64,000 bases of DNA, taken from the IMG/VR virus record IMGVR_UViG_3300045988_161245, positions 148,685 to 212,684 of that record, one strand, 5' to 3'. Shown one piece after another: positions 38,078-58,788 of the stretch. The notes beneath the pieces are model-generated. The model had not been told where the DNA came from and searched no databases. It worked only from the letters and a program-made list of their open reading frames with translations. This stretch comes from a virus. Both the position numbers and the translations under genes were made by a program. Each line of letters starts with the position of its first letter. Positions within the stretch are counted from its first letter, which is position 1.

Positions 38078-38146
38078 ATCCTGGATGCGGATTCGAACCG
38101 GCAAATACATGAGTTTCATGTGTTATAACCATTTAACTATCCAGGA
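38078..38146 (-). tRNA. tRNA-like gene whose anticodon arm is replaced by a 6-bp/3-nt-loop hairpin
   Basis: Perfect acceptor TCCTGGA/TCCAGGA, TA, D arm GTTA-AATGGTTA-TAAC, then ACATGA-AAC-TCATGT. The T arm has loop TTCGAAT but a weak stem. It is followed by hairpin TTGGGTTAGCTACCCAA. Confidence 0.45.
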
Positions 38147-39327: not shown

Positions 39328-39398
39328 AATGTTCTTCTCCTTTAAATTGAATTTTATTCTTTAAATTTTTAACTTTGAAATACTCATTTCTGAGTTAA

Positions 39399-39470
39399 CT
39401 GCACCTGTTGGAATCGAACCAACATCTGATGATCCAAGGTCATCCGTGATAACCATTACACTAAGATGCT
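39399..39470 (-). tRNA. tRNA-like gene, anticodon loop CCTTGGA (TTG with C33, or shifted TGG); A1/A72 mismatch
   Basis: AGCATCT-TA-GTGTAATGGTTATCAC-G-GATGA-CCTTGGA-TCATC-AGAT-GTTGG-TTCGATT-CCAAC-AGGTGCA-G. The cloverleaf is good but position 33 is C. Confidence 0.55.
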
Positions 39471-41228: not shown

Positions 41229-41242
41229 TTATTATTACCTCT

Positions 41243-42172
41243 CTATTTATTACTTCCAATTCTTTGAGCTTTTTGTTTTAGTTTTTCATTAATCTCTTTC
41301 ATCTGCATTGTAATGATTTTGTTCTGCAAGCAAGCTGGATTAATTGGAAACTGTTCATCTCTAAGAATTACTTTCGAATCTGCTTCAAATTTATTACACA
41401 TTTTTACTGCTTCATCGTAATCAAAATTTTTCATTTCAATCTTAATATCAAATCGTCCATCTCTAATAAGAGCAGGATCTAGTCTATCAATATAATTTGT
41501 TGTTGCTAAGAAAATTGTTCTCTTACATGAATTAATTCCATCTAAGAGCTGTAGCAATGCTTGAAAATTTTCTCTATCTGCAGAGGTAACACTATTATCA
41601 CGTTTACTTACCAGAACATCGATATCTTCTAACACTACAACAGAATCTTCCAATTCATCCCAGAATTCATTTTTTGTAATTAATTTTGATAAATCAGATA
41701 ATTTTAATTTAATAAGATCTAAATTATATTTCGTGGCTAAAACTTTGGCAAAAGTTGTTTTCCCAGTACCTGGATCACCGTATAATAAAATTCCAAGTTT
41801 GTGATTAATACCATGATCAACAAAATAATTTTCTGAATCAATCCATGTCTTAACATAGTCAAATATTTCTCGTTTCTCTGGAAAAATAATTGCAGATTCA
41901 TCAATACCATCAATTGAGTCTTTTTCGATAGAAAAATCATTTTTATCCAATATAATAAGATTACGTGTTTCTATAAATTTGCTTCTATATTTCTCTATAA
42001 ACCTTTTGAAAAACTCTGCATGTTTTTTTCTGTGTTTCCCATAAAAGAAAATATTGGAACTTGTCATCTTTACGAAACTACCAGTATTTTTTATATAAAC
42101 AATTATCGTTCCGTCTTTACAAATAAACCTAATTTTTTTTATTTTCTGGTAAGAGTTTATGTAATTCTCCAT
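41243..42172 (-). CDS. AAA+ ATPase (classic clade, BCS1/FtsH-like module)
   Basis: Walker A LLYGDPGTGKTT, Walker B VVVLEDID, second region of homology TTNYIDRLDPALIRDGRFD. Confidence 0.75.
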   Translation of the reverse strand: MENYINSYQKIKKIRFICKDGTIIVYIKNTGSFVKMTSSNIFFYGKHRKKHAEFFKRFIEKYRSKFIETRNLIILDKNDFSIEKDSIDGIDESAIIFPEKREIFDYVKTWIDSENYFVDHGINHKLGILLYGDPGTGKTTFAKVLATKYNLDLIKLKLSDLSKLITKNEFWDELEDSVVVLEDIDVLVSKRDNSVTSADRENFQALLQLLDGINSCKRTIFLATTNYIDRLDPALIRDGRFDIKIEMKNFDYDEAVKMCNKFEADSKVILRDEQFPINPACLQNKIITMQMKEINEKLKQKAQRIGSNK

Positions 42173-42476
42173 TTATACTATAGTAATTAGTTGGATTACA
42201 CTCATTTACATACTTTTCATACAGTAATGGATTAAGACGTTCAAGATAATAACAAAAATTATTAATCTCTTCTAAATTTACTGCACAAAATCCAATGCAT
42301 AATTTTTCCTGCAGTTTGTCAATTTTACTTATTATTATTTCTTCACATTTGTTAAAAATAATATTATTGATGTTTATTTGCATCGCATTTTTTACACCAA
42401 TTTCTTTTGTTAGTCCAATTGTATCTCTAAAATTATAAAATAATGTTTTGGTATAGATTGGTTTTGTATATTCCAT
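42129..42476 (-). CDS. hypothetical protein
   Basis: The start was moved to MEYTKPIYTK (RBS GAGGT upstream) to remove the long overlap with the macro gene. Confidence 0.4.
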   Translation of the reverse strand: MEYTKPIYTKTLFYNFRDTIGLTKEIGVKNAMQININNIIFNKCEEIIISKIDKLQEKLCIGFCAVNLEEINNFCYYLERLNPLLYEKYVNECNPTNYYSINGELHKLLPENKKN

Positions 42477-42495
42477 TTTTAACCTCGATTTTATT

Positions 42496-43272
42496 TTATT
42501 TACTAAACACCCTCTTGAATACCATGTAGTTCGTACCGCCAGGAATCGCAAATATAATATTCTCAAAAGTATCGGTATAATATTCTTCTAATTCTTTTTT
42601 GAAACTATTCGCAACAAATTCTGCATCATTACCAAATACACCACATCCCCATGCGCCAAGAATTAATGTATTAACTTCCTCTTCTTGTGCAATATCAAGC
42701 ATAAAATGTATACGATCAACCATTACAGAATTACAATCGAAATCAGATTTGCCACAATATTTTTGAGCTGCAGTTTTGTTTGGTGCTGCACAAGTAATAA
42801 CATCTACACAAATTTCTTCATCGCCTCTTATGAATAAAACATCAGGACTATATAATGCACGATTTGTATATAATGCGAAGTTCTTTGTTAATCTATTGAA
42901 TTCATAATAATCTTCATTAAATTCAGATAATACATTATATAAGAAAGAACTGTGGCAAAGCATTTCTTCCTGCGCAGACGAACCATCTAAGAATTTGCCA
43001 CCTGGATTTTTATAGCTTGCAAAATTAAGAACTACTGTTTTACCTGTATTTTCATAAGAAAATATTGCCTGTACACTATCCATATCTTCTACAGTGATTT
43101 TCTGATGAAAATCCGGTTTACTATCGCATTCTTTCTTACAATAGAATCCTTGGTCATATATCTTTGTATTGTGTACACATTCTGTAATTTCCAAGCTATA
43201 TAGCTCTTCCATTTTATTTGTGTGAGCATTCGCCTTTTTCTTTAACTCGTTTTTTCTATTCCAATATCCCAT
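42496..43272 (-). CDS. macro-domain protein, TIGR02452 / microbial PARG-like
   Basis: Signature VLNFASYKNPGGKFLDGSSAQEEMLCHSSFLYNVL and later LGAWGCGVFGND. The ATG start at 43272 overlaps the TAA of the upstream phosphatase fragment (TAATG). Confidence 0.75.
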   Translation of the reverse strand: MGYWNRKNELKKKANAHTNKMEELYSLEITECVHNTKIYDQGFYCKKECDSKPDFHQKITVEDMDSVQAIFSYENTGKTVVLNFASYKNPGGKFLDGSSAQEEMLCHSSFLYNVLSEFNEDYYEFNRLTKNFALYTNRALYSPDVLFIRGDEEICVDVITCAAPNKTAAQKYCGKSDFDCNSVMVDRIHFMLDIAQEEEVNTLILGAWGCGVFGNDAEFVANSFKKELEEYYTDTFENIIFAIPGGTNYMVFKRVFSK

Positions 43273-43462
43273 TACCAAATCCTCACAATCTGGTGATATA
43301 ATAAAATTTCTTTGTCATTTATCTGTTTATCACCATGTAAGTGTCCAAAGAACCACTTCTTGAATTCACATTTATATAAAATATGCATTTAACTCGTCTG
43401 TCTTAAAAGCTCCATGGCTATACAAAGCTTTTGTACTTGAGGTACAGTCATGTGTAATTATA
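43272..43462 (-). pseudogene. C-terminal remnant of a metallophosphatase gene disrupted by the IS (also frameshifted)
   Basis: One frame reads IITHDCTSSTKALYSHGAFKTDELNAYFI-stop. A second frame reads YKCEFKKWFFGHLHGDKQINDKEILLYHQIVRIW-stop. ITHD and GHLH are calcineurin-like phosphoesterase motifs. Confidence 0.6.
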
Positions 43463-43620
43463 TAGTGAAGCCTCACACGACTTAAGTCGCGTGCTTCCTA
43501 ATGCTGTATATTTGATATACAGTTTCCCTTTAGGGGAATCGGATTGCCTTTCCATAGATACAGTCTAAACTCAGTTACTAACTAGCATTACGCTGCTAGT
43601 GCCGCATTCAGACTAATGAG
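43463..43620 (-). ncRNA. predicted omega-RNA (reRNA) scaffold of TnpB
   Basis: The region from the tnpB 3' end to the RE contains successive hairpins on the minus strand: CTAGCAGCGTAATGCTAG, CCCCTAAAGGG, CTGTATATCAAATATACAG and CACGCGACTTAAGTCGTGTG. The guide would be the flanking ATAATTACACATGACTG. Confidence 0.5.
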
Positions 43621-44907
43621 TGTGGATAAGGTACAGGTGCTTCTCTTAGAGCATCGAGGAACTTTTGCCTCAATGTCCAACCTTAGACTCTCATCTAAGG
43701 ATTTTAATATTTCTCTGATGAAATACCTGGCTCCTATATTATAGGATGCAGATAAATCGCAGTTGTATATTTTACCGTTAGTAAATTTACAGACGCTATA
43801 AGTTGCAAGATCTGCGTCTTTACCTCGTAAAACCATGCCACTATCGTCATAAGCAAACTTGCTTGTACCCCAGGCGCAAATTCTTCTAATTCGCATACCT
43901 AAGCGGTGAACCTTGTTTGTAACAATAGCTTGTACTTCCTGACTACGCCACATATGCAGCTTTTGCTTTTTGGACCCACGAAGTTTGCCGTTGCGGTCTA
44001 GGTATTCAAAGACGATAATATCTACATTATAAAGAACAGCTATATCTGTGATAAATTGTGCTGTTTTAACAGAAATATCGTGGTTGATGCCTTTTGTTCT
44101 TGACCATAAACGAGGGGTTTTACAGTTATGATGTTGTTGTGCCTTTTTAATACGATTAATACTATGTATCAGATGGTCTATTTCTTTATTGAGGTGACAG
44201 AAATGTCTCCCAAGAATAGTGCCATCGGATCTCATTACACTAATCGTAGCTGCGGTATTGATACCAAGATCCACAGCAAGTATGGTTTGTTTATCAACAT
44301 CTGTATCGCAAAGTTTAGCTTTCTCCTCAAACGGAAAATCCAAAAACCACTCTTTCCCACGTTTTTGAAGTGTTGGAGCGCATTGCTTTCTCGTTGAACA
44401 ATGGCGATTGATATAGTCTATATCTGACTTTCTAAGGTTAACGGTGATCCAATCCCAGGTGTTGCGGATATGAACCTTGATTTGCGCTTGGTAAGTCCCT
44501 GTTTGCTCGTACATATTTGTACGATACATAGATGGGTAGATATATCCAGCTTTTGGAACCGAAGGAGCTTCCCCCTGCGGATTAGCTTTCCAGCTTGCAA
44601 AGTTGCTTTTATAAGATGATACCTTACCAATTGCTTCACTGATAGCTCCTCGGCGTAAATAACATGGAAACTTGTAAAAATGGACATCGAAATCATAAGC
44701 CACATTTGGATTGTCTTTCGTCTTATGAATCAGTGTCTCTACGAATCGTTGTTTTTCAAGTGGTTTTTCGTATGAGGTGATATTGTCCCAGTCTTCAATA
44801 CAAACATGTATCAGGTAATCTACTGCAGCACGATATACAGAAATAGTATCTTTAAAGATATGATTATAATGCTTAATTTTAACTTTGTAAGTAGAATATA
44901 TCGTCAT
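43588..44907 (-). CDS. tnpB: TnpB (RuvC-like RNA-guided nuclease, OrfB_IS605 family)
   Basis: The start was set at MTIYSTYKVKIK (RBS AAGGAGG 8 nt upstream). RuvC D in ILAVDLGIN, E in IVFEYLD, Zn-finger region CAWGTSKFAYD..CKFTNGKIYNCD, and the final D in LSASYNIGARY. Confidence 0.85.
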   Translation of the reverse strand: MTIYSTYKVKIKHYNHIFKDTISVYRAAVDYLIHVCIEDWDNITSYEKPLEKQRFVETLIHKTKDNPNVAYDFDVHFYKFPCYLRRGAISEAIGKVSSYKSNFASWKANPQGEAPSVPKAGYIYPSMYRTNMYEQTGTYQAQIKVHIRNTWDWITVNLRKSDIDYINRHCSTRKQCAPTLQKRGKEWFLDFPFEEKAKLCDTDVDKQTILAVDLGINTAATISVMRSDGTILGRHFCHLNKEIDHLIHSINRIKKAQQHHNCKTPRLWSRTKGINHDISVKTAQFITDIAVLYNVDIIVFEYLDRNGKLRGSKKQKLHMWRSQEVQAIVTNKVHRLGMRIRRICAWGTSKFAYDDSGMVLRGKDADLATYSVCKFTNGKIYNCDLSASYNIGARYFIREILKSLDESLRLDIEAKVPRCSKRSTCTLSTLISLNAALAA

Positions 44908-45070
44908 ACAGCAGACCTCCTTTCTACGTTGATACATATAATTGTCAGATTATGAGTAATAACTAATTTCCATACACAGTCTATCTAATGGACTCATCAA
45001 CGAAAACTTTTTTAAAGTGAGAGAAGCGGCTAACTCATGACTAAAGTCATGAATGTGCGCCTCTAAAATC

Positions 45071-47017: not shown

Positions 47018-48145
47018 TTAATAATATAAATAATTGTTATAATAATTATGGAACTCTTTGCCATCAATATGCTGATATATATTATATTTTGGTTTTATCT
47101 TTTCATATAATTCTGATGGCAGATATTCTTTATTTTGACATAAATATGTTCCATTACCTTTATCAATTACTTTTATTTCTTCGTAATAGCTGTTTAAGAA
47201 ACTTGTATACTTGTATTTCTTTATGCGCTCAATAAATTTATCGTATGGTAAATCAAGTAATGTTTCAGATGTAAAATTAATTGGGTTATAATTAAAATGG
47301 TTATTTTCAAGATCATCGAAATATTCTGCATAATTCTGTGATGGCTTTTCATCTACACAATCAATCAAAATATCACCAATATTTTTTCGTGTCTCAAAAC
47401 AATATCTTTGAAATGAAATATAATTGTTGTTATCAACTGAACGAAACCAGTAATATTTACCTTTATTCACATGCTTGTATGCAGTGTTTTTATCATTTGG
47501 CATCAATGTCCATGTGTCATCTAAATCAAATTCCCACTTTCCGTCCTTATCATTTAACGACCAACGCCAACCTTTTCTAAAACAATTTGTAAGCTTCTCC
47601 CATTTATCGAACCTACCCATGTATACCCATTTCTCTTCATTTTTTGTTAGATATGTGGCTCCAATAATAAGATCCTTACCTTTAAATCTCTTCCCATTTT
47701 GAATTTTATCTGTATGCTTCTTTATCTCTTTGTAATCTGGTGAATCTACAGGAATCAGAACTAATTCCTTTCCGTCCCATCCATATACAAATTCTCCATC
47801 CAAACCCTTACCTTTTAGACAATCACAGTGTTCTAAAATGAACAGTAAATTTGGAATAGTAATCTCAAATTCAAATCCCCTAGGATCATACACTCTAGTA
47901 TATGTCTGTCTAGGATTCCAACCATATCTATCACCGCCAACCTTTTTATTTAATACAAATCCTCTAGTTGGTTCATTATCAAAATCATCTGGTTCAATTT
48001 TTTCATCTCTCCAGCTATTCCAGCTTGTTTCTTTACGAAGCTTACCTTTTTCATCATAATAGATTACGTAAGCAAGCTTCTTAGTGTAAGTATCATTTCT
48101 GTTTTGATACCCTACTTTAATCTTCTCAGGAATATAAATACTCAT
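47018..48145 (-). CDS. hypothetical protein
   Basis: 375-aa Trp/Tyr-rich ORF that overlaps the upstream gene by 4 nt. Confidence 0.55.
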   Translation of the reverse strand: MSIYIPEKIKVGYQNRNDTYTKKLAYVIYYDEKGKLRKETSWNSWRDEKIEPDDFDNEPTRGFVLNKKVGGDRYGWNPRQTYTRVYDPRGFEFEITIPNLLFILEHCDCLKGKGLDGEFVYGWDGKELVLIPVDSPDYKEIKKHTDKIQNGKRFKGKDLIIGATYLTKNEEKWVYMGRFDKWEKLTNCFRKGWRWSLNDKDGKWEFDLDDTWTLMPNDKNTAYKHVNKGKYYWFRSVDNNNYISFQRYCFETRKNIGDILIDCVDEKPSQNYAEYFDDLENNHFNYNPINFTSETLLDLPYDKFIERIKKYKYTSFLNSYYEEIKVIDKGNGTYLCQNKEYLPSELYEKIKPKYNIYQHIDGKEFHNYYNNYLYY

Positions 48146-48807
48146 TCAATTTTCCTCTTATCATCGTAATACCATTGCTTGTCAATCAAATCCTTGATAA
48201 CACCGCTTTGCTCCATCTCAATCCACTGATCCAATGTAAGTGGCTTATAATCAGATAACATACAGAAACAGTCAATCATTTGAACAGGAATTGTTTTTGG
48301 TTCATCATCATATTTTGATTTACGTAATGTACTTCTCGTTATGTCTTTGAACTGCTCCACTAATTCCTGATCTTCAGTAAGATGAGTGTGTCCATGCAGC
48401 ATCCATGTAATAGGTTTGCCATCTTTATCAATACGGAACTGTCCATTGTAACAGAATATTGGATAGTGACATAAGACTACTTTTCTTCCATCATCATGCA
48501 TTTCTGCATAAGGTTTAATCCATTGAAATAGTGACTGATCAAATTTCTTATCTTGTAGAAACTTATCATGTCCACCATTCACTAAAAACTTCTTCCCATT
48601 TAGTTTGCGAAGTATTTCGTTAGTTTGCTCACCTTTGCCAAGTGAAAAATCACCCAGGATAACAACTTCATCATTTTTTCTTACTACAGAATTCCACTGT
48701 TTAATCATATAATCATGCATAGTTTCCAATGATTCGAAGCCACGTTTATCCATAGCATCATTTATTCGTGAATGATGGAAATGATTATCTGCAATATAAA
48801 ATCTCAT
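48142..48807 (-). CDS. metallophosphoesterase (calcineurin-like)
   Basis: ADNHFHH, ILGDFS, VNGGHD, CHYP and HGHTH metal-binding motifs. Confidence 0.7.
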   Translation of the reverse strand: MRFYIADNHFHHSRINDAMDKRGFESLETMHDYMIKQWNSVVRKNDEVVILGDFSLGKGEQTNEILRKLNGKKFLVNGGHDKFLQDKKFDQSLFQWIKPYAEMHDDGRKVVLCHYPIFCYNGQFRIDKDGKPITWMLHGHTHLTEDQELVEQFKDITRSTLRKSKYDDEPKTIPVQMIDCFCMLSDYKPLTLDQWIEMEQSGVIKDLIDKQWYYDDKRKIE

Positions 48808-48995
48808 TAAATACCTCCGATTGAATCTTTACAAGTTTTTGTAACATTATCATAATTTAGTTTGTCGCTATATTTCATCCACTCTTGCAACTCAGAATAT
48901 CCACACGAACACTCATGCACAACAATATGGTATCCATAATCGTATTTAATTGTAGAACTCATATATTGACCACATTTAGGGCATTTCCTCGTCAT
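48807..48995 (-). CDS. small Zn-ribbon protein
   Basis: MTRKCPKCGQYM...HECSCGY. The start was chosen at the second Met cluster. Confidence 0.4.
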   Translation of the reverse strand: MTRKCPKCGQYMSSTIKYDYGYHIVVHECSCGYSELQEWMKYSDKLNYDNVTKTCKDSIGGI

Positions 48996-50355
48996 TACCT
49001 TCTTCTCTTTCTGTATATAATTTAGCATCAATATTGTTTAGAATATCTTCTTTGTCATTATCCAACTTGTCATTAATTACTTCTTCCAATGCATAGTTGA
49101 GCCATTTTCCAACATCTGGACCTTCTTTAACTCCAAGCTCCATAATATCCTTCCCATTGATAGCCAAATCCTTTATGGTAAAACACTTCTCTTCTTCCAG
49201 AACTTCATTTAATACTTCTTCTGCACGAAATGTTTCCCATAAACGCTCTTTAGCGTAATATGGATTGTGAGCCATAATATCGCAGAATCTTACATCTAAC
49301 AGTCTTCTAAGTTGTGCTTCACCAAGTTTATTCAGATATTTTTTAATCTTATTTTGTTTTGGTATAATTGTCATATCATGGCTTGCCACAAGTTCGACTA
49401 CGGATTCTCTGATTTCATTAGAAAATTTAAGTCTACGAAGTAGTGAGTCAGCAATTTCTGCACTTTTAACAGCATGTCCATAGAAGTGCTCAATCCCTCG
49501 ATCTGCTGTTTTTGATTCTGGTTTACCAATATCATGAAGTAAGATAGCAAGTCTGGTCTCTAATTCATGTATTCTACAAGCTGTTAATGCGAATCTGGTG
49601 TGATTCCATACATCGTAAATGTGATACATATTATTCTGGGAGCATCCCATTATCTTACTTAACTCAGGGATTGCCGGAGAAATATCAATATAATAATTAA
49701 GTACGTATTCAGGATGATCTGAAATAAGAATCTTACACAGCTCTGACTGTATTCTTTCTGCAGAAATTTTACTCAGACCATCGTTTGTTTGTACCATTGC
49801 AATATTGGTATAGTTTTCAATGTGGAATCCCAATTGAGCAGCAAACCTTACAGCTCTCATGATACGCAACGGATCTTCTGTGAATCTATCAATAGGTACA
49901 CCTACACATCGGATAATTTTATTCTCAATATCTTTTAGTCCATTGAACGGATCAATAAATCCATCATCGTCATTGTAGGCAATCGCATTCATTGTAAAAT
50001 CACGCCTTGCTAAATCTTCATGAATATTTCCAACAAACTTCACAGAATCTGGATGGCGGCTATCAGTATATTTTCCATCGGTTCTATAAGTAGTTATTTC
50101 ATACCCACAATAATTTACCATGACAGTTACAGTACCATGCTGCAAGCCTGTTTCTACTACACGAAATCCTTTGCTACGGAACAATTTACATACGTCTTCC
50201 GGCGAGGCGTTTGTGCAGATATCCCAGTCATGCACAGGTAATCCTATAATAGAATTACGTACAGCTCCACCTACAATATAGGCTTCGTAACCATTACGAT
50301 TAAGTACGTAAAATATAGATTTTACGGACTCTGGTAATACAATACCCTCTATCAT
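48976..50355 (-). CDS. cca: CCA-adding enzyme / tRNA nucleotidyltransferase with HD domain
   Basis: The start was set at MIEGIVLPES (RBS GGAGAG 8 nt upstream). GGAVRNSIIGLPVHDWDI (GGxVRD..DxD) is present, followed by RRDFTMNA, EDPLRIMRAVRFAAQLGF and the HD motif LLHDIGKP. Confidence 0.85.
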   Translation of the reverse strand: MIEGIVLPESVKSIFYVLNRNGYEAYIVGGAVRNSIIGLPVHDWDICTNASPEDVCKLFRSKGFRVVETGLQHGTVTVMVNYCGYEITTYRTDGKYTDSRHPDSVKFVGNIHEDLARRDFTMNAIAYNDDDGFIDPFNGLKDIENKIIRCVGVPIDRFTEDPLRIMRAVRFAAQLGFHIENYTNIAMVQTNDGLSKISAERIQSELCKILISDHPEYVLNYYIDISPAIPELSKIMGCSQNNMYHIYDVWNHTRFALTACRIHELETRLAILLHDIGKPESKTADRGIEHFYGHAVKSAEIADSLLRRLKFSNEIRESVVELVASHDMTIIPKQNKIKKYLNKLGEAQLRRLLDVRFCDIMAHNPYYAKERLWETFRAEEVLNEVLEEEKCFTIKDLAINGKDIMELGVKEGPDVGKWLNYALEEVINDKLDNDKEDILNNIDAKLYTEREEGNDEEMP

Positions 50356-50382
50356 TTTTACTCTCCTTTCTTTAAGATTTAA

Positions 50383-50517
50383 TGTGCAGATAGGGATTTG
50401 AACCCTATATAAGCAAATTTGATCAATTTTGTTTATTGACATAAATTCGCCATTATAATATGCCTAATTTTGTAAATAAAGCATTATTATACGCATATAT
50501 CCATTCTGCCACTGCAC
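50383..50517 (-). ncRNA. 135-nt tRNA-like element in the cca leader
   Basis: Acceptor GTGCAGT/TCTGCAC pairs at 6 of 7 positions. T arm TAGGG-TTCAAAT-CCCTA and a D-like GCA-GAATGGATATA-TGC are present. Between them are two long hairpins (ATAATAATGC..GCATATTAT and GCGAATTT..AAATTTGC) instead of a normal anticodon arm. The 3' end lies 28 nt before the cca ATG. Confidence 0.45.
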
Positions 50518-50548: not shown

Positions 50549-50726
50549 ATAGTGGTGTGCTATTACGCCAAAAGGGGACTTATCCTTACCTGTTAAGGGG
50601 TGACGTATCATAACTCTTTACATCCTATTCTCTTACTCGTTTATCTTCGATTGAAGTTTTTCATACCTTTAGACTTAAAGCCCTACTCCTTAGATGATGG
50701 CTGCTTCTAAGCCAACATTCCACTAT
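50549..50726 (-). ncRNA. structured RNA mimicking 23S rRNA helices 42-44 (GTPase-associated centre) with a ~115-nt insertion
   Basis: The minus strand reads ATAGTGG-A-ATGTTGGCTTAGAAGCAGCCATCAT-CTAAGGAG...TTTTG-GCGTAATAGC-ACA-CCACTAT. The 25-mer equals E. coli 23S 1057-1081 and the 10-mer equals 1091-1100, as I recall the 58-nt L11-binding RNA. The closing 7-bp helix is complementary but unrelated in sequence to rRNA. Confidence 0.6.
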
Positions 50727-50735
50727 TTATTATTT

Positions 50736-51476
50736 CTATTTCTTTCTAGCTTTTAATTCAGCTAATTTTTTCTCAATTTCTTCATCTTTCATTTTCTGAT
50801 CAAGACGCTGCTTCTGCACTGATGCGGAATTTTCATAAGCAATTTTTGTACCATCAGCTGCCTCTTTCTGTTTTTTAACACCATCACGCACTTTCTCAAG
50901 CATTTTATCTTCTTCTAAGGACGACATACCTGGTGTCGCTTGCAAAGATTTTGTTACCTGCGCTGTTTCAAGTGTCAGAATTGCATTATCTTTTTCTGCT
51001 TTAAGATCAGACAACTGAGTCTTAATAGTATTTACTGTCTCTTCCTGGAGTTTTGCATTTTCTTTCAATCCAACAAGAGCATCTTTGATGATTGTAACTT
51101 TTTCTTCTAAATCCTGCTGTTCTTTAAGATAAACTTTTGCACCATCATCATCATTTTTCTCTACACAAGAGTTCACATTAATTTCGGCTTTCATAAGATC
51201 TTTTTTATAACCACGGAGCTGATCTTCGTAATTAGAAATCTTTCCAAGCATCTGAGAATAAATAGTATTTGCCTGAGTAAGATCATCTTCTTTTTTTTCA
51301 ATTGCTACGTTATAATAAGCTTTTGCGCCCTCTGGTGTTGAAGCATCTTTTGTAATAGCCTCTGCAGCTGTACCAGAAGCTCTAAGTCTTAATCTTTTCC
51401 CTGTTTTTGTCCTTGCAAATACAATAATTCCAATCAAAGCAAGAATAACAATCGCTGCTACAATTTCTAATCTCAT
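50736..51476 (-). CDS. membrane-anchored PspA/IM30-like coiled-coil protein
   Basis: 246 aa. An N-terminal TM segment (LEIVAAIVILALIGIIVFA) is followed by a long heptad region with the PspA-like pattern (AKAYYNVAIEKKEDDLTQA..LKEQQDLEEKV..). The family call is tentative. Confidence 0.45.
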   Translation of the reverse strand: MRLEIVAAIVILALIGIIVFARTKTGKRLRLRASGTAAEAITKDASTPEGAKAYYNVAIEKKEDDLTQANTIYSQMLGKISNYEDQLRGYKKDLMKAEINVNSCVEKNDDDGAKVYLKEQQDLEEKVTIIKDALVGLKENAKLQEETVNTIKTQLSDLKAEKDNAILTLETAQVTKSLQATPGMSSLEEDKMLEKVRDGVKKQKEAADGTKIAYENSASVQKQRLDQKMKDEEIEKKLAELKARKK

Positions 51477-52114
51477 TAGTCTCTACCCTCATCAATATCA
51501 AGCCCAAAGTTCTTAAACAGCTCCGTCATTCCACCAACATAACCAGAGCCAAGTGCCTGAAATTTGAATCCATCGCCATAACGATATAGTCTTCCCATTT
51601 CTACAGCATTTAGTTTTTCAAAATTTTCATTTTCAGAAAGGTCATACTCATATTTATCACCATCTGGATTATCATAGTCACAAATCGTCATTATAGCGTT
51701 AGACACCATTCCAAAGTTCTGAAGCCTCTGTACGGCTCTAAAAATAGTCAGACAAACAGTGAAGTCTGTCTTATCTTTAGGAAATGTATCTGCATGAACA
51801 ATAAAATATTCATCATAATGTTTACCATTAAATACAATTCCCTGTGTATCATCGCCAGTACGATTATCTCCAGAATACTCTACCCATGGATATTTACTTC
51901 CATCGCCATATGTATTGTAGTTAACAAGATCTCCTGGATATACAACTTTACGATCCTGATTTGTTAAAAGTCCATTAATATCAAAATCAATGTCTGCTTC
52001 TCCAGCATATCTATTCTGATCCCAGTTGGCTCCGATGAAAAAATTCTTTACTGCAGAACCATCCTCTTTTACCATACTAATTTTCTGATTTTTGCTCATG
52101 TTAATAACTGCCAT
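51476..52114 (-). CDS. terD: TerD-family protein
   Basis: GANWD..DIDFDINGLL, YSGDNRTGDDTQG (Ca-binding GDN.TG.GD motif) and GRLYRYGDGFKFQALGSGY are typical TerD blocks. Confidence 0.8.
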   Translation of the reverse strand: MAVINMSKNQKISMVKEDGSAVKNFFIGANWDQNRYAGEADIDFDINGLLTNQDRKVVYPGDLVNYNTYGDGSKYPWVEYSGDNRTGDDTQGIVFNGKHYDEYFIVHADTFPKDKTDFTVCLTIFRAVQRLQNFGMVSNAIMTICDYDNPDGDKYEYDLSENENFEKLNAVEMGRLYRYGDGFKFQALGSGYVGGMTELFKNFGLDIDEGRD

Positions 52115-52138
52115 AGTTATATTCTCCTATTTCTAAAA

Positions 52139-52903
52139 TTATTTATTATTCAGCCAGTCTTTGTACTGACGAAGAATCTCTGTATAAAGCTGTTCATCTG
52201 TCATCTTATCCATATCTTCTACAGAAGTGAAACCTGTATTGTCTGCCTCTCTTCCATCGAGTTTGTCAAGTTTTTTGAGGTAACTGAAATTGTCGTCACC
52301 AATTCCGATAAACTGCACGAAAATGTTATACTTAGAAAGCTCACGTACAATCTTGTCTGTTGCTACATGATCTGAGTTGTCACCATCTGTAATAAAAATT
52401 ACAAACGCAGGAATCTCACTTGGCTCAATGTCTTTATAATATGTAACAACTTCATCCAATACAGGTGCATATTCTGTTCCACCCATATACATACCAGACT
52501 TTTTCATAACCTTTTTAACATAATTTGAATAATTATTCTCTGTAACTGCTTTTAAACGTTTGCATCCATTTGAGAATAACCAGCTCTCAAGTTCGCCATT
52601 ATCATCAAATCTAAGAGCGATTGGAAGAAGTCTTGATACAGTTTTCTGTACAGAACCATTATCAAAAAGCCAATCCATACTTCCTGAGTAGTCCATAGCT
52701 AATGCGACTCTAGCGGTATGTTTAGTCATATCAATCTTGCTACCCTTGGACATATCAATTAGAACATTATTTAAATGTTCTTTAGACATATCAATTGTAA
52801 AAGTAGCTTGTGTTTCAGTTTTTTCTGTAGATTTAGCAGCGGTATCAACCGCCACCTCTTCTACATCATCTTTCTTACCAAACAATTTTCCAAAAAATCC
52901 CAT
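52139..52903 (-). CDS. vWA-domain protein (TerY/TerF-C-like)
   Basis: MIDAS motif ALAMDYSGSM, later GGTEYAPV and FITDGDN. Confidence 0.7.
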   Translation of the reverse strand: MGFFGKLFGKKDDVEEVAVDTAAKSTEKTETQATFTIDMSKEHLNNVLIDMSKGSKIDMTKHTARVALAMDYSGSMDWLFDNGSVQKTVSRLLPIALRFDDNGELESWLFSNGCKRLKAVTENNYSNYVKKVMKKSGMYMGGTEYAPVLDEVVTYYKDIEPSEIPAFVIFITDGDNSDHVATDKIVRELSKYNIFVQFIGIGDDNFSYLKKLDKLDGREADNTGFTSVEDMDKMTDEQLYTEILRQYKDWLNNK

Positions 52904-53076
52904 ATTTTTTTCTCCTTTTTATTTTTTTAATATTTTTAATGATATAGGGTATGTTAATAAAGTAAAAAATATAAATGGAACAAATTTTGTTATACATACA
53001 AGTATCAAACCAATTGAATAACAAACTAAAGTTATATTTTCAACAATTTTATATTCTTTATCCATATACCTTACTT

Positions 53077-55704
53077 CTACTTTCTTTTAATTTTTATAAC
53101 AGCTTTTCGTACTAAATCAATTGGGATAATCATAAATGCCAAAACAACTGTCACACCCCACTGTGTACCTGACATTGCTGTACATCTCATAACATCTCCA
53201 CCGAACTGTGCTAAAACAAATGTTAAAGCAAAAATTACAACTGCAATTTCGATGAAAAGTTTATTTTTGCCAATACCCTTAAACAGATTGAATCCGTCCG
53301 TTCTGATATTAAATCCGTTGAATGTTGCCATCATAATGAGTAGTGCAAATCTGACTGTAGCATAAACAGGCTCATTGTTTCCGAAAATTTTCTGTACCGA
53401 TGGTAACAAAGTAATACCAAAGATTCCAATAAATGCCACAACTGATACTGCAATCTGACCGATAGTTTCTTTTGAAAGAAGTTTTGATCCTTTTGGAATA
53501 GGCTTTTCTTTCATATATTCGTCTTTCGCAGGTTCTCCACCAAAGGAAAGGGAATTAAGAGAATCCATAACAATGTTAATTACAAGAATCTGCACTGCAG
53601 CAATTGCTTCCACAGACATAATAATTGGATATAAGATACTGAGAATTACTAGACCTATATTGATAGGTAACTGAAATTTTAAAAACTTCATAACATTGTG
53701 CATAAATGTTCTTCCCAAAAGAACTGCATCTGTGATAGATACAAAGTTATCATCTGTGATAATAATATCGCCAGCTTCCTTACATACGTCTGTTCCAGAT
53801 CCCATTGAGAATCCAACATCTGCTGCTTTCAATGCTGGAGCATCGTTAGTCCCATCTCCTGTCATACCAACACATAAACCAAGTTCTTGAGCTAAACGTA
53901 CAATTCTAAGTTTAGTGTTTGGTGTTGCTCTAGCAATAACTTTAATATAAGGAAGTTTTTCTTTTGCCTCTTCGTCTGATAATGCATCAAAGTCAATAGC
54001 TGACATTGCAATGTCAGATTCACTTGTGATCAATCCAGCATCTTTTGCGATAGCTTTCGCTGTGTCGATAACGTCACCAGTTACCATCATGACCTGAACT
54101 CCTGCATTGTGCATTTTTGCCACTGCTTCTGGTACTTCCGGACGAACATCATCACGAATTGCAACCAGCGAAGTAAGAATAAGATCATCTGGGAATCCCT
54201 CTTCTGGTAATGTGGATTTGCTGTAACCTGTTGCGATAACTCGCATTGCTTTTACAGCATATGCTTTAACGATAATTTTCAGCCTGTCTTTGTCGATTGG
54301 CTGGATTCCTTCTGCTGTTTCATAGGAAATTGCTGCGTCAATCAGTTTTTCCGGCGCACCTTTGTAATAGGTAATCTTTCCTTCTTTTCCATCTGTCTCA
54401 ACTGCACTGAACTTATTTGCACTGTTGAAACTCTTTCTATTTGACACATTCACTGAATCAGTGACCATGTTGTATTCTTCTCTACTAACCAACGTGAGCA
54501 ATGCTCTTTCTGTGGCATTTCCGCCTACAATGTCGTTGTTTTCGTCATACATTGCACTGCTGTTTAATGCCACATTCAGCTTAAACAGATTGTCTGTCAT
54601 ACTTCCTTCCGGTACTGGGTTTCCATCACCCATTACATTCTCTACCGGCACAAGTTTACCTACTGTAAGAGTTCCTGTCTTATCGGTACAAAGTAACTGA
54701 ATATTACCTGCTTCTGGAATCTTGTTAGTGTGTTTAGCTAGGACATTGTGTTTAATCATTACTTTTGCATTCTGCGCAGTAATTAGATTAATGATAAGCG
54801 GTAGTCCTTCTGGTACTGCTGCGACAATAATGGTAAGCGCAGTTACTGTAATGGTAAGAATATTCTTCAGAATACCAATCCAACCCATTCCAAAGTATTC
54901 AGCGATACCGCCGTACTGGATAATGTTTGTGATGATCAATGCTACAACAATGATTGAAGCTCCGATATATCCGAATTTACTAATCTGTCCAGCAAGATCC
55001 TCCAACTGGATTTCCAGGGAAGTCTTTGTTTCTTCGATTTCATCAATGGTCGAAATTGTCTGACCGTTTACTGTGTCAACACCAACGTTAGTTACAATCA
55101 TTTTTCCTTCGCCATCTGTTACCGTTGTTCCGGAAAACAGTGCATAAGAATTTGTATAATCACTTGAATCCGCTTTTCTCTGACCACCAAATGTGATAGG
55201 TGAATCTTCTTTATCCCATGCTGTTTTTTTGCAAGGCTCTGACTCTCCATTCAATACAGAGTTGTCAACTTTTATATTTCCTTCTACCAGATATCCATCT
55301 GCATGAATGGCTTCTCCGGACTGAATGATAACCAGATCACCGACAACCAAATCATTTGTATTGATATGCTCGATTTTTCCATTTCTGATTACATTACAAT
55401 AATGAACTGATGTCCTATCCTTCAACTCTTTTGCACTTTTCTGGCTTTTCAGTCCGGTGTTCATTCCTAACAATGCGATTGCCAATAATACTACTGCAAC
55501 ACCAATCGGTTCTGAATAAGATCCCTGTCCAAACACTGCAATAACTGTAAATACAATCATCATTGCTAAAAGAATCTGATTTATGTGACTTTCAAATGTT
55601 TCCATAAAGAATTGAAACCCTGTTTTCAGCTTTTTCTCTGGCAGTTTATTACTACCATACTTTTCTCTCTGTTTTTCTACTTCACTACTTTTTAAACCGT
55701 ACAA
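53077..55704 (-). CDS. P-type ATPase, P2 (Ca2+-transporting) type
   Basis: TGES-like LNGESEP, AVPEGLP, phosphorylation site CTDKTGTLT, MVTGD and hinge GMTGDGTNDAPALK, with about 10 TM segments. 875 aa. Confidence 0.9.
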   Translation of the reverse strand: MYGLKSSEVEKQREKYGSNKLPEKKLKTGFQFFMETFESHINQILLAMMIVFTVIAVFGQGSYSEPIGVAVVLLAIALLGMNTGLKSQKSAKELKDRTSVHYCNVIRNGKIEHINTNDLVVGDLVIIQSGEAIHADGYLVEGNIKVDNSVLNGESEPCKKTAWDKEDSPITFGGQRKADSSDYTNSYALFSGTTVTDGEGKMIVTNVGVDTVNGQTISTIDEIEETKTSLEIQLEDLAGQISKFGYIGASIIVVALIITNIIQYGGIAEYFGMGWIGILKNILTITVTALTIIVAAVPEGLPLIINLITAQNAKVMIKHNVLAKHTNKIPEAGNIQLLCTDKTGTLTVGKLVPVENVMGDGNPVPEGSMTDNLFKLNVALNSSAMYDENNDIVGGNATERALLTLVSREEYNMVTDSVNVSNRKSFNSANKFSAVETDGKEGKITYYKGAPEKLIDAAISYETAEGIQPIDKDRLKIIVKAYAVKAMRVIATGYSKSTLPEEGFPDDLILTSLVAIRDDVRPEVPEAVAKMHNAGVQVMMVTGDVIDTAKAIAKDAGLITSESDIAMSAIDFDALSDEEAKEKLPYIKVIARATPNTKLRIVRLAQELGLCVGMTGDGTNDAPALKAADVGFSMGSGTDVCKEAGDIIITDDNFVSITDAVLLGRTFMHNVMKFLKFQLPINIGLVILSILYPIIMSVEAIAAVQILVINIVMDSLNSLSFGGEPAKDEYMKEKPIPKGSKLLSKETIGQIAVSVVAFIGIFGITLLPSVQKIFGNNEPVYATVRFALLIMMATFNGFNIRTDGFNLFKGIGKNKLFIEIAVVIFALTFVLAQFGGDVMRCTAMSGTQWGVTVVLAFMIIPIDLVRKAVIKIKRK

Positions 55705-55706
55705 AA

Positions 55707-56747
55707 TTAAATTTCTCCTTTCACAATTCTTTCATTTACAGACATAACAAACTCATTGATTTTCTTATAATCAGGCTTCTCTGGAAGTTTTGTCTGCTTT
55801 ATAACTTCCTGAAGCTTTTCTTCTCTTTGATCAAGAAGATCATAAAATTCCTTTTTGATAGTAATTCCGTCAGTGAAATCACCACGCTTAACAGCAAGCA
55901 GTTCTTCTCTTTCTGTCTTATCTTCTCTATATGTGCAATATTCTCCTGTGGTTAATAACTCAATTCCCATGTCATAAACTCTTAAAAGATGACTCATATG
56001 CTTAGAAATTTTCCCATGAGTTACAGCATAATTATTACGTTTATTGTTTTTGTCATAACTACTGCATACTGTTTTCATCTGATTCCAAAGATTGCACCAA
56101 TCTCTTAATGGATAATGTCTGAGATTAATATCCATATAAATTTCTTTATTAAATTCTGGTCTAACAGAATCATCAATATACAAATTGATACTATTGTCGT
56201 CATATGGAGAGTATTTTTCTTTTTCCCATTGATTTACAGCTTCAATACTTTGTAAGATATGCTTTTCTTTCTGCTCTTGATCAGATGCATTTGCAGATTT
56301 ATTTTGCATTCTACGAATCTGAGATCGTGAGTATTGGGTAAACGTATGTACACATAGCTGAGACATAAATAAATGCCTATTTTCATATAGTTCTTTGCCA
56401 ATTGGAGACATGTATAAATAATGCTCATTTCTAAGTCCTAATAACTCGCATGTACCAGGATCAGCTTTAGTTAAAAGATATACATACTTTTTCAATGATT
56501 TAATTTCAACATCAAGTACATTGTTTCGTACATTATCAAAATCCTGTCCAAGTAATACTTCTTCTTTTGAATTTAAAGCAATTCCACGAATGTCAACATC
56601 AGAATTTGGATTTTCCAGTCCATATGCATAGCTTCCACCTAGCCCCAACAAAATAATGTTGGAGCCAAGGTGTTCATTATTTCTCAGAAAATCATAGTCC
56701 GGACCAGCTACTTTTTTCTTAATCTCTTCAATCGTCATATCAATCAA
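55707..56747 (-). CDS. Pol-beta-superfamily nucleotidyltransferase (RlaP-like)
   Basis: GLGGSYAYGLENPNSDVDIRG matches the GSxxYG..SDxDxRG motif of the PF10127-type nucleotidyltransferases linked to RNA-repair loci. Confidence 0.55.
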   Translation of the reverse strand: MIDMTIEEIKKKVAGPDYDFLRNNEHLGSNIILLGLGGSYAYGLENPNSDVDIRGIALNSKEEVLLGQDFDNVRNNVLDVEIKSLKKYVYLLTKADPGTCELLGLRNEHYLYMSPIGKELYENRHLFMSQLCVHTFTQYSRSQIRRMQNKSANASDQEQKEKHILQSIEAVNQWEKEKYSPYDDNSINLYIDDSVRPEFNKEIYMDINLRHYPLRDWCNLWNQMKTVCSSYDKNNKRNNYAVTHGKISKHMSHLLRVYDMGIELLTTGEYCTYREDKTEREELLAVKRGDFTDGITIKKEFYDLLDQREEKLQEVIKQTKLPEKPDYKKINEFVMSVNERIVKGEI

Positions 56748-58788
56748 ACCTATCTACCTTAATCATTTTTACAGTGTTTCCAGTAGTTACTTTAATAATC
56801 AAATTCCATTCTTTGTCTTTGCTGTAACCAACACCACAAGCACTTGCTTCATCTTCACCCTCAATAGGTGTTGACGCAGTATACGCTTCAAGTGTTTTCC
56901 TAATTTCCTGTAGATCACCCTTAAGCATCTCAGTAAAGAAACCACGTCCAACTCCGCCTGTCATATCTTTACAGTCTTTCAATAAGAAGAAAGTGTGTTC
57001 GCCAGATCGTTTATATGGATTTTCTCCCCACATGTTTGGAGACGGAATAATTGCAACAACTTCTGAGAATCCGTTACTGATTCCCCAAGTTTCTTTAGTT
57101 TCTGTCTTTTTAGAATTTGCAGTAAACTTAGGATCTTCACCATGACGATAATCAAATTCAAATACTACGTCTGTATTTTTTCTATAATTATCACTTGTAA
57201 GATTTCCGTCATAAGTATAAATTTTTCCATTTACTTCAAGCTCTAATTTATATGGATTATTGGTTGCTCTATTTGTATAGTTATTAACAAAGAATTTATA
57301 ACGTCCTTCTGGAGCAGTTCCAGTTGCCCAACGAATATTCTCGACAGGAGTTACTGTTTCACCATTAACATTTGCATCAACATCTAGTGAACCATATCCG
57401 TGATTCTTATGTCCAAAATAAATTTCCACTCCATCAGGACAAATACAATGTACATCCAGGTCGGTACGTGTATTCCAGATTAGAGAACATCTGATCTCAC
57501 AACCTTCATATTTTGCACCTTTTGCTTCAAGTCGCTCACGAATTACAGAATCAATACCACTCTGGTAATACCAAGAAAATGTATTATCCCAGTTCATAAT
57601 ATTTTCAGATTCCGGAACAGCAGCTGTTACAATTCCCATAAGATGAGTTGTTCCATCAACTTTTACTTCCAACTTATCTGCAGTAGGAAGAATTGTTTTT
57701 CTGAATTTATCCCATGTCATAGTTACCTGTGGAATTACAGATTTTGTTTCATTACTATCTACAGCTTTAGTCTGAACTCCTGCAAATACTCCAGTCTTTA
57801 CTTCCTCTTTATTTTCAGTTTTACTCTTCCAAATAAACTCATTCTCAGGAAGCTCATCCAGTTTTGCATATCTTCTTCTAAGTGAATCTGCAAGACCAAG
57901 TTTTTCAATAAGTTTTTCAGCACTTTCAACAGCTCTCTGAGTAGGTGCAGACTGTGAACGTCTATAATTCTCAGCACTCATATTTGTCTCAAATTTTCGT
58001 TTGATTGTATCAAAGTCATCTCCATCTACAATATAATCAAGTAATGTACCTAACATACTTCCGGAAATGTGAGTAAATCCATTTGGAGCTGTAGCAGCAT
58101 ATTTCCAAATCATATTAGTGTGTTGTGGCTGATCATTGATAGAAGCAATCTTCTCTTTTGTTTCCTTGAACCATTTACACATTGCTACATAGCTGCTACC
58201 TCTATATAAACTTCCGGATTCTAATAAATTAAGTGCCTGATCAATCTGTGGCATGGAATACTTCTCAAGTGCTCTTTTCAGCATTCCATAATCTTCAGCT
58301 TTTTCAGCAGAAATCTGTGAAGCATTTTTTACCCTTGATGTATTGATCATTACTCTTGGAAGTTTTGCAGAAAAATGATGGAATCCATTGGTATCATATG
58401 TTCCAAGATCCACATAATCTGATACGAATACATCCTGGACCTGAGCAGACTCAACAATCTCTTTCATCTGTGTAATTGGCTCAATAAACATCCCAGGGAT
58501 ATTTTCAATGTTCCAAATAGCAGATTCAGTTGTTCCATCGTCTTTAATAAATACAAGTCCACCAAATCGATCTACAAAGTGTTTACAAGCTCTACATGTA
58601 TATTCCTGTTTGCAAGCATCTGGAAGATAGTAAAGAAATATGTCAAATAAGTCAGATACGCTTGTTCTAAACAGTGGTGTTTTTACATTGTCTTTTAGTT
58701 TTGATGCAAAAGTTTTCTTAATATTGTCAACAAGTTCCTCATATCCATTGTTCTCATTTTTCCAGATTTCCGGATCATACATCTTCAT
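56740..58788 (-). CDS. large hypothetical protein with C-terminal YfaP/DUF2135-like beta-sandwich
   Basis: 682 aa. The C-terminal block IRCSLIWNTRTDLDVHCICPDGVEIYFGHKNHGYGSLDVDAN resembles the DLDLHV..P.G..I.Y motif of YfaP-type domains. The N-terminal ~430 aa were not recognised. Confidence 0.5.
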   Translation of the reverse strand: MKMYDPEIWKNENNGYEELVDNIKKTFASKLKDNVKTPLFRTSVSDLFDIFLYYLPDACKQEYTCRACKHFVDRFGGLVFIKDDGTTESAIWNIENIPGMFIEPITQMKEIVESAQVQDVFVSDYVDLGTYDTNGFHHFSAKLPRVMINTSRVKNASQISAEKAEDYGMLKRALEKYSMPQIDQALNLLESGSLYRGSSYVAMCKWFKETKEKIASINDQPQHTNMIWKYAATAPNGFTHISGSMLGTLLDYIVDGDDFDTIKRKFETNMSAENYRRSQSAPTQRAVESAEKLIEKLGLADSLRRRYAKLDELPENEFIWKSKTENKEEVKTGVFAGVQTKAVDSNETKSVIPQVTMTWDKFRKTILPTADKLEVKVDGTTHLMGIVTAAVPESENIMNWDNTFSWYYQSGIDSVIRERLEAKGAKYEGCEIRCSLIWNTRTDLDVHCICPDGVEIYFGHKNHGYGSLDVDANVNGETVTPVENIRWATGTAPEGRYKFFVNNYTNRATNNPYKLELEVNGKIYTYDGNLTSDNYRKNTDVVFEFDYRHGEDPKFTANSKKTETKETWGISNGFSEVVAIIPSPNMWGENPYKRSGEHTFFLLKDCKDMTGGVGRGFFTEMLKGDLQEIRKTLEAYTASTPIEGEDEASACGVGYSKDKEWNLIIKVTTGNTVKMIKVDRFD

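Follow-up and report, generated by a model that had tools for sequence, protein, structure and literature searches.

For decades, the bacterial Ter systems have been tied to resistance against phages, colicins and tellurite, and to our knowledge no mechanism is known for any of them. Ter operons were also found in jumbo phages, where a role in superinfection exclusion has been proposed (Iyer et al. 2021, PMC7824862). Huge phages of the gut were reported to carry Ca2+-translocating P-type ATPases, and the same work lists 85 other gut phages with such pumps, some of them Bacillota-like; in its Jug phages, which infect Bacteroides/Phocaeicola, one of the terD genes adjoins a pspA-like gene and is highly transcribed, this terD-pspA pair forms an operon separate from that of the pump, which shares its transcript with an unrelated small gene (77–91 aa), and the Ca2+ ATPases were read as auxiliary metabolic genes (Sci Adv 2026, PMC12880540). 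The main survey of PspA gene neighbourhoods, finally, never mentions TerD, calcium, P-type or vWA (PMC11237479). Here we describe a locus that joins these elements. The window which we analysed comprises 64,000 nt of the IMG/VR virus record IMGVR_UViG_3300045988_161245 (positions 148,685 to 212,684), and its minus strand encodes a P-type ATPase, a vWA protein, a TerD protein and a PspA-like protein in one cassette. We give even odds, that is a probability of approximately 0.5, to the reading that this region encodes a calcium-centred form of the Ter membrane-stress system which is carried by a phage and organised as a four-gene unit.

The existence of such a unit is seen best from its conservation. 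We collected 118 related viral loci, independently via the ATPase and via TerD; 108 of them are complete and ten are truncated contigs. The genes for ATPase, TerD and the PspA-like protein follow each other in this order, on one strand and within 7 kb, in 108 out of 108 complete loci, and the order is invariant even where the identity of the ATPase is as low as 45%. A vWA gene is located between ATPase and TerD in 90 of the 108 and absent from the other 18. Of the two architectures that occur, ATPase-vWA-TerD-PspA is that of the window, the other being ATPase-(vWA)-TerDx3-PspA. For the core genes the ratio of non-synonymous to synonymous substitution rates (dN/dS) is 0.03–0.13 in unsaturated pairs. 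The co-conserved unit consists of the four genes ATPase-(vWA)-TerD-PspA-like, and it is under strong purifying selection.

This unit is smaller than the module proposed in an earlier note on this DNA, which had been made from the sequence alone and comprised six genes. All six minus-strand open reading frames (ORFs) are present at the positions given there (Table 1), each preceded by a Shine-Dalgarno-like sequence. The two upstream genes are not part of the conserved unit, however: a gene for an RlaP-family nucleotidyltransferase is directly upstream of the ATPase gene in 21 out of 104 IMG/VR loci and located elsewhere or absent in the remainder, a DUF8224 gene is found at most 4 kb upstream of it in 25 out of 104, in two very divergent forms, and the exact six-gene layout occurs in only four of these loci. 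The six genes had also been called tightly linked, which is correct with a single exception. From the DUF8224 gene to the PspA-like gene the intergenic distances are -8, 2, 173, 24 and -1 nt, the exception being the 173 nt between ATPase and vWA genes. This non-coding gap (52904–53076) is particular to the sub-lineage of the window, since the two genes abut in loci of the L041 type; it could be the site of an internal promoter. The four-gene cassette spans 5.0 kb.

The pump contains the Pfam domains E1-E2_ATPase, Cation_ATPase_N, Cation_ATPase_C and Hydrolase. Its best NCBIfam model is TIGR01517, the equivalog model of PMCA-type Ca2+ pumps (510.8 bits, cut-off 507.05), and all other subfamily models score far below their own cut-offs. 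The closest sequences in the PDB are the plant PMCA-type pump ACA8 (4e-106) and LMCA1 of Listeria (4e-102). The P-type catalytic core is complete; the motifs DKTGT, TGD, GDGxND and PEGL (M4) as well as N710/D714 (M6) are invariant in clade members that are 47–88% identical. The segments 'AVPEGLP' and 'INIVMDSL' align with 'AVPEGLP' and 'VNLIMDTL' of ACA8, and thus the residues of Ca2+ site II are present, namely the glutamate of PEGL in M4 and N...D in M6. M5 reads 'QLPINIGL' and offers no acidic residue for site I; the leucine is at what we take to be the position of SERCA E771. Its dN/dS is 0.09–0.13. Judged from its sequence, the protein is probably an active pump of the PMCA type. Among deposited phages a tblastn search returned ATPase matches of less than 39% identity, mostly in unannotated short records named Listeria or Enterococcus phage, which offered no phage context that could be used.

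TerD matches PF02342 over residues 4–203 of 212 (2e-33), and full-length alignments were obtained with two Ca2+-binding TerD proteins of solved structure, 2KXT (1e-21) and 3IBZ (7e-21). Residues D43, D45, D62, D83-N84, G87 and D101-E102 are invariant in nine TerD proteins down to 27% identity. The acidic loop reads GDNRTG-DDTQGIVFNGKHYDE and contains a 9-residue insertion in comparison to the motif GDN(R/L)TGEGDGDDE; the motif 'GDN.TG.GD' given previously is therefore only approximate, as the actual sequence is GDNRTG-DD followed by the insertion.

The vWA protein belongs to the vWA-TerF-like family PF10138 (7e-61, 206 bits, cut-off 29.4) and matches also Copine (6e-9) and VWA. The residues of its metal-ion-dependent adhesion site (MIDAS), D71-x-S73-x-S75, T143 and D173, are invariant in six sequences 66–75% identical to it, and its dN/dS is 0.11–0.13. 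It is homologous to the vWA proteins in the Ter operons of Caulobacter phage CcrColossus, Rhizobium phage TM30 and Acinetobacter phage vB_AbaM_ME3 (26–33% identity). We also considered the N-terminus 'MGFFGKLFGKK' as a membrane-targeting helix and dropped this idea, its hydrophobic moment being low (0.22). Altogether, profile searches agree with the previous assignment of the RlaP, P2-type Ca2+-like ATPase, MIDAS vWA and TerD families, none of which had to be reassigned.

For the PspA-like protein, the match to PF04012 (2.7e-5, 24.4 bits) does not reach the Pfam gathering threshold of 33.9, and TIGR02977 yields 15.8 bits at a cut-off of 243. The weak PF04012 match is collinear along protein and model, many close relatives (~70% identity) have precomputed PF04012 matches, and the best PDB matches of the protein's profile are Vipp1/PspA (E 0.007). 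In the AlphaFold2 (AF2) model, residues 50–160 form a hairpin with a predicted local distance difference test (pLDDT) value above 90. When this model was compared to the PDB by Foldseek, the top 12 matches all were Vipp1/PspA (E 1e-4, probability 1.0), and residues 1–144 of E. coli PspA (4WHE) align to it with a TM-score of 0.76 and a root-mean-square deviation of 1.8 Å. An ESCRT-III-type helical hairpin fold is supported by this prediction. Residues 1–26 are hydrophobic and contain one N-terminal transmembrane helix, and seven K/R are located within residues 22–45; the PspA domain should therefore be tethered at the cytoplasmic face of the membrane. The former description as a membrane-anchored PspA-like protein is thus borne out by fold and transmembrane helix, but not by a sequence score above the Pfam cut-off. 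TerD, vWA and P-type ATPase constitute a PspA context that the main survey of PspA neighbourhoods does not catalogue.

A search of the BFVD with the model of the PspA-like protein gave no match below E 1e-3, a PspA/IM30 protein of ME3 appearing at rank 39, and the sole relative found in a deposited phage was gp247 of Bacillus phage G (L337 6905–7645). It has the same N-terminal transmembrane helix and the motif 'TPEGA..YN.AIEK' in common with the protein of the window; it adjoins ABC-transporter genes and has no TerD nearby. Some relatives of the cassette carry a LemA-family gene and a gene for a 254-aa protein directly 3' of the PspA-like gene (L123 10846–12154), in this case on a 3.69-Mb contig and near a gene for an MrpR-domain protein.

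The comparison of the window with the related locus L129 revealed a mosaic. Nucleotide identity is ~100% from ~52150 to 58150, including the genes for DUF8224, RlaP, ATPase and vWA, falls to 58–66% across terD, is 86–89% in the 5' portion of the pspA-like gene and 97–99% beyond. A sharp mosaic boundary is thus present at positions 51386–52155, a segment comprising terD together with this portion. The TerD protein of the window is 90% identical to the allele of a lineage whose pump is 47% identical, and between these two terD genes synonymous sites are saturated (proportion of synonymous differences, pS, 0.72); dN/dS against the L041 allele class is 0.03. The local divergence and the saturated synonymous sites indicate that two old classes of terD alleles (212 and 252 aa) were shuffled among near-identical genomes. 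We favour to regard this allele swap amid a near-identical background as a signature left by conflict or by diversifying selection.

The linkage of TerD to a pump extends to bacterial chromosomes. We sampled 80 chromosomal TerD loci of Clostridia/Lachnospiraceae by a TerD-based scan. A P-type ATPase gene is located 1–2.5 kb from terD on the same strand in 56 of them, in two gene orders, and ATPase, YceG and TelA genes occur together in 33. An example is the operon TerDx3-ATPase-YceG-TelA of C. difficile (L259 6995–14443), with a PMCA-type pump that scores 652 bits against TIGR01517, the range for Ter-linked cellular pumps being 549–652 bits. An operon of this kind was also seen on the chromosome of E. 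plexicaudatum ASF492 (L302 6995–11571). With a pump beside terD in so many loci, the Ter-Ca2+ pump linkage is a common cellular theme in the host lineage. The combination of Ter genes with a cation pump had been called unusual in a virus; this view is not tenable, in light of the cellular pairs and because the parts had already been reported in phages. We found no discussion of the TerD-pump linkage in Clostridia in the literature searched, which did not include the Ter survey of 2012. An ATPase-motif scan, which returned ~70 stand-alone cellular pumps of 43–50% identity, had suggested that the linkage is phage-specific; the TerD-based scan overturned this. A vWA-based scan of bacteria yielded either the same phage element in isolate assemblies and metagenome-assembled genomes or ordinary Burkholderia Ter loci.

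The partners are different on the two sides. None of the phage loci contains YceG or TelA, and among the 80 cellular TerD loci none has a PspA-like gene and only two have a vWA gene. Neither pair of exchanged partners, vWA/YceG and PspA-like protein/TelA, showed homology by hhalign. In a rough neighbour-joining tree, calculated without support values, the phage pumps fall into two clades, both nearer to the stand-alone than to the Ter-linked cellular pumps; hence the linkage of pump and Ter may have arisen more than once.

Contigs related to the window have sizes of ~100–250 kb and are abundant in human-gut viromes; among deposited phages megablast found no DNA near-identical to the region. 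Close relatives are contained in assemblies made from isolates, namely Blautia faecis, Ruminococcus sp. AM36-2AA and E. plexicaudatum ASF492; they also reside on contigs of 1.4–3.7 Mb. The occurrence in assemblies of cultured Lachnospiraceae and on contigs of megabase size points to this family as the host group and to persistent carriage.

Taken together, we consider a role in Ca2+ homeostasis and membrane integrity to be the most reasonable reading. The pump would hold cytoplasmic Ca2+ low, and TerD would sense or buffer Ca2+ that enters through a breached membrane. TerD and the metal-dependent vWA adaptor might then engage a polymer of the membrane-tethered PspA, which would stabilise or reseal the bilayer. 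An infected or persistently carrying Lachnospiraceae cell would thereby stay energised when challenged by superinfecting phages, bacteriocins or pore-forming abortive-infection effectors. Ca2+ specificity in vivo, a physical coupling of the four proteins and this biological role are what we infer. From the exchange of terD alleles and the Ter literature we favour a role in conflict, be it superinfection exclusion or protection from membrane-breaching effectors.

Several observations weigh against this proposal. The ion specificity of a P2-type pump is not fixed by sequence alone, and the cut-off of TIGR01517 is barely passed. In comparison to the solved Ca2+-binding proteins, the acidic loop of TerD has an insertion. 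A scan for promoter and terminator consensus sequences found sites no more common than in shuffled sequence and therefore gave no operon boundaries. The relative in E. plexicaudatum ASF492 keeps the vWA gene alone, as neither a pump nor TerD nor a PspA-like protein is encoded up to 8 kb from it; together with the 18 cassettes lacking vWA this means that the parts are separable. None of the six proteins matched a PADLOC defence model at E <= 0.01.

The last point bears also on the possibility that superinfection exclusion or competition between elements is the primary role, with an altered membrane of the persistently infected, pseudolysogenic or lysogenic cell barring other phages and colicin-like agents, as has been suggested for the Ter systems of jumbo phages and plasmids. 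For phage Ter operons this role has been proposed (Iyer et al. 2021, PMC7824862), a swap of old terD alleles between near-identical genomes is typical of conflict genes, and the relatives in isolate assemblies and on very large contigs suggest persistence in the host. On the other hand, besides the negative PADLOC result, there is no sign of a temperate phage, and no integrase was found in the scanned parts of the window. As the primary function we regard it as possible but rather unlikely; it overlaps with the Ca2+/membrane-stress reading and does not exclude it. A more specific mechanism would be a self-contained, Ca2+-triggered membrane-repair pathway, a prokaryotic and viral analogue of the eukaryotic wound repair by Ca2+, ALG-2 and ESCRT-III. 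TerD and vWA would act here as a copine-like Ca2+ sensor and adaptor which recruits the membrane-tethered ESCRT-III (PspA) polymer to lesions; resetting would fall to the dedicated PMCA-type pump, by which the Ca2+ signal would be removed. If true, the recurrent TerD-Ca2+ pump linkage in phages and Clostridia would give a first mechanistic handle on Ter systems. We hold it for unlikely, and for much less likely than the general Ca2+/membrane-stress reading.

Alternatively, the pump alone might matter, as an auxiliary metabolic gene that adjusts cytoplasmic Ca2+ for replication, packaging or the timing of lysis, TerD, vWA and PspA being generic stress genes that are mere neighbours. The interpretation of phage Ca2+ ATPases in the literature and the transcription of the Jug pump apart from terD-pspA speak for it (PMC12880540). 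Yet gene order and strand are invariant in 108/108 loci across deep divergence, cellular TerD-pump operons exist independently, and the start codon of the pspA-like gene overlaps the terD stop codon by 1 nt, so that we find this explanation quite unlikely. Still less probable appears a functional six-gene unit in which DUF8224 and RlaP would make or sense a nucleotide-like signal controlling Ter, pump and PspA, in analogy to the nucleoside-metabolite pathways linked to Ter that have been proposed for bacteria. It could draw on the 8-nt overlap of the DUF8224 and RlaP genes in the window, on the recurrence of DUF8224 upstream of the pump described above, and on a DUF8224 homologue beside the PRTase-HAD-PRTase and TerD genes of ME3. 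It conflicts with the scarcity of the exact layout (4/104), with the ~530 phage records that contain DUF8224, most of them without Ter genes, with the pairing of RlaP and CCA-adding enzyme elsewhere, and with the DUF8224 model, in which no enzymatic fold is recognisable. Finally, the cassette could be a passenger, a host-derived block for resistance to stress or xenobiotics (tellurite-type) that is useful to the bacterium as long as it carries the phage but plays no part in the life cycle of the latter. Bacteria owe resistance to tellurite to such Ter loci, and the classical-type TerDs of the phages with the 3xTerD cassette variant are 64–74% identical to chromosomal TerDs of Lachnospiraceae/Clostridia. 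In more than 100 phage genomes, however, purifying selection is strong and synteny strict, and the partners are phage-specific (no YceG/TelA in the phage loci, no PspA-like gene in the cellular ones), which makes this highly improbable.

The two genes upstream of the cassette have associations of their own. RlaP matches PF10127 (2e-17, 64 bits, cut-off 23) and phrog_388 (4e-51) and contains the nucleotidyltransferase motif GS...DxD ('GLGGSYAYGL...DVDIRG'). In the distant relatives L133 and L120 it is adjacent to or near the gene for the CCA-adding enzyme. RlaP is therefore probably a member of the RNA-repair gene set, and the cassette looks inserted into an RNA-repair block in the lineage of the window. 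L133 is a contig of 238,228 bp from E. plexicaudatum ASF492 (AQFT02000004.1) with relatives of RlaP, CCA-adding enzyme and vWA of the window, and it may be an episomal relative of the phage.

The 682-aa protein had been described as unknown with a YfaP-like C-terminal domain. Its family can now be named as DUF8224 (PF26675), and some sources call these proteins 'YfaP family', but a fold could not be assigned: the AF2 model (pLDDT 83) has no significant Foldseek match in the PDB. The assignment comes from its closest relatives (e.g. P0121, 98% identical), which bear precomputed PF26675 matches; the Pfam set searched lacks this model and gave no match. The protein matches phrog_1735 (2e-169), and its residues C65 and C68 are invariant. 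The family occurs in ~530–544 phage records. In Sundance, SP-15 and CcrColossus its gene has no Ter genes nearby, and in the first two it stands alone. The homologue in ME3, ME3_284 (L333 16075–18090; 27% identity over 657 aa, E 2e-69), adjoins the Ter locus and the PRTase-HAD-PRTase genes of this unrelated jumbo phage, which is a second, independent adjacency of DUF8224 and Ter genes.

As a whole, the window corresponds to that block of a large phage genome which serves replication and nucleotide metabolism, with genes for a DnaE-type Pol III alpha subunit, RecD2, RecJ, DnaB, ribonucleotide reductase and DNA ligase; an endolysin gene is on the strand opposite to this block. RNA ligase, phosphoesterase, CCA-adding enzyme and RlaP around the cassette form an RNA/tRNA-repair set (Table 1). 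Downstream of this set, positions 40587–44937 comprise four minus-strand genes, which encode the RNA ligase, an AAA ATPase, a microbial-type poly(ADP-ribose) glycohydrolase (PARG) and a weak OrfB_IS605/TnpB-like ORF; the PARG suggests a countering of ADP-ribosylation.

Table 1. Genes of the cassette, its neighbours and the transposition module, with positions in the window
Feature	Position	Strand	Remark
DUF8224 ('YfaP family') protein, 682 aa	56740–58788	-	frequent, non-obligate cassette neighbour
RlaP-family Pol-beta nucleotidyltransferase, 346 aa	55707–56747	-	cassette neighbour, outside the conserved core
PMCA-type (P2B) Ca2+-exporting P-type ATPase (predicted), 875 aa, TTG start	53077–55704	-	first cassette gene
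vWA-TerF-like protein, 254 aa, intact MIDAS	52139–52903	-	in 90/108 cassettes
TerD-domain protein, 212 aa, divergent class, insertion in acidic Ca2+-binding loop	51476–52114	-	
Membrane-anchored PspA/IM30 (ESCRT-III superfamily)-like protein, 246 aa	50736–51476	-	predicted
CCA-adding enzyme	48976–50442		
Phosphoesterase	48142–48807		
Weak OrfB_IS605/TnpB-like ORF	43588–44937	-	
Microbial-type PARG	42496–43278	-	
AAA ATPase	41243–42172	-	
RNA ligase	40587–41228	-	
Transposase with rve and Mu-transpos_C domains	7188–9041	-	transcribed first in transposition module
TniB	5960–7195	-	second in transposition module
TniQ	5151–5963	-	third in transposition module

The PspA-like gene and the gene for the CCA-adding enzyme are separated by 293 nt. 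Here, the 24-mer TGTTGGCTTAGAAGCAGCCATCAT is located at 50694–50717 on the minus strand, 19 nt 3' of the pspA-like stop codon; we take it to be the sequence of the GTPase-associated centre (GAC), the L11-binding site of 23S rRNA. There is one copy in the window, with 0 expected by chance, and it was found without any change in seven related loci (L003, L005, L006, L126–L129), each time just past the pspA-like gene. A 'GAC-mimic RNA' had been placed downstream of the module. At the level of sequence and strand this is confirmed by the 24-mer, but no Rfam family matches the relevant strand of the intergenic region, and the whole 293 nt fold no better than shuffled sequence (z-score 0.34).

Two further elements of the minus strand should be mentioned. 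ARAGORN predicts a tRNA cluster (Leu, Met x2, Gln x2) at 35877–39470, in which Rfam finds two more tRNA-like matches (38078–38146 and 35877–35934) and a RAGATH-27 RNA (38488–38573; 87.5 bits, gathering score 76.1). The segment 5151–9041 is a three-gene Tn7/Tn5053- or Mu-like transposition module inside the phage genome.

What does the cassette add to the understanding of Ter systems? More than 100 gut phage genomes repeatedly combine TerD with a PMCA-type Ca2+ pump, and so do most of the clostridial Ter loci that were sampled, where the pumps belong to other clades; the phages add an ESCRT-III-like PspA to the pair. From these links it would seem that what Ter senses is Ca2+ entering where the membrane is damaged, an idea that can be tested. 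The compactness of the cassette, the strong constraint on it and its presence in assemblies of cultured Lachnospiraceae isolates make it experimentally tractable. The linkage also calls for a refinement of the view, put forward recently, of phage Ca2+ pumps as metabolic genes that stand alone.

When set beside the described systems, the cassette appears partly familiar. Of the Ter parts, it has TerD and vWA, both of them homologues of the proteins in known Ter loci, whereas TerC and TelA are absent. Since the positions of the latter are filled by a non-homologous pump and the PspA-like protein, we consider the cassette a variant of Ter and not a canonical member. In its layout the chromosomal yce-type operon of Clostridia corresponds to B. 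subtilis yceCDEFGH, a pump taking the place of the TerC-family protein YceF, and it has in common with the phage cassette the direct link of TerD to a PMCA-type P-type ATPase. It differs in having YceG and TelA instead of PspA-like and vWA proteins, and three TerDs where the lineage of the window has a single, divergent one; the phage pump is only 30–43% identical to the clostridial Ter-linked pumps and groups with stand-alone pumps.

The layout TelA-vWA-DUF475/TerC-like-TerD was confirmed in CcrColossus (gp219–222) and TM30. These operons are likewise phage-encoded, contain homologous vWA and TerD proteins and consist of four parts, i.e. transporter, vWA, TerD and a coiled-coil protein. Compared to such four-slot layouts, the transporter slot of the window is occupied by a PMCA-type P-type ATPase instead of TerC/DUF475 and the sub-membrane coiled-coil slot by a transmembrane-anchored PspA/ESCRT-III-like protein instead of TelA; the gene order is different, too. 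The CcrColossus operon (L334 16987–20382) is immediately followed by genes for RtcB, a metallophosphoesterase and an HD protein, which parallels the RNA-repair genes flanking the cassette in the window. The Jug phages are, as the phage studied here, huge gut phages with a Ca2+ pump, terD and a pspA-like gene. For them no vWA was reported and the parts are in separate operons, in contrast to the one contiguous cassette of the window, which stems from another clade and a Lachnospiraceae instead of a Bacteroides/Phocaeicola host. With classical PspA, LiaH and Vipp1 (IM30) the PspA-like protein shares the predicted ESCRT-III-type hairpin fold; a true N-terminal transmembrane helix takes the place of the amphipathic helix alpha0 of PspA/Vipp1, and PspB, PspC, PspF and LiaI, the partners in the classical Psp and Lia systems, all are missing from the cassette.

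New, by comparison, are the union of pump, vWA, TerD and PspA-like protein in one cassette, the replacement of TelA/YceG by non-homologous PspA-like and vWA proteins, a pump from a clade other than that of the Ter-linked cellular pumps, and a terD that is exchanged as an allele cassette between genomes whose four upstream genes are ~100% identical. Summarizing, the cassette represents a known bacterial stress operon in remodelled form and not a new kind of system.

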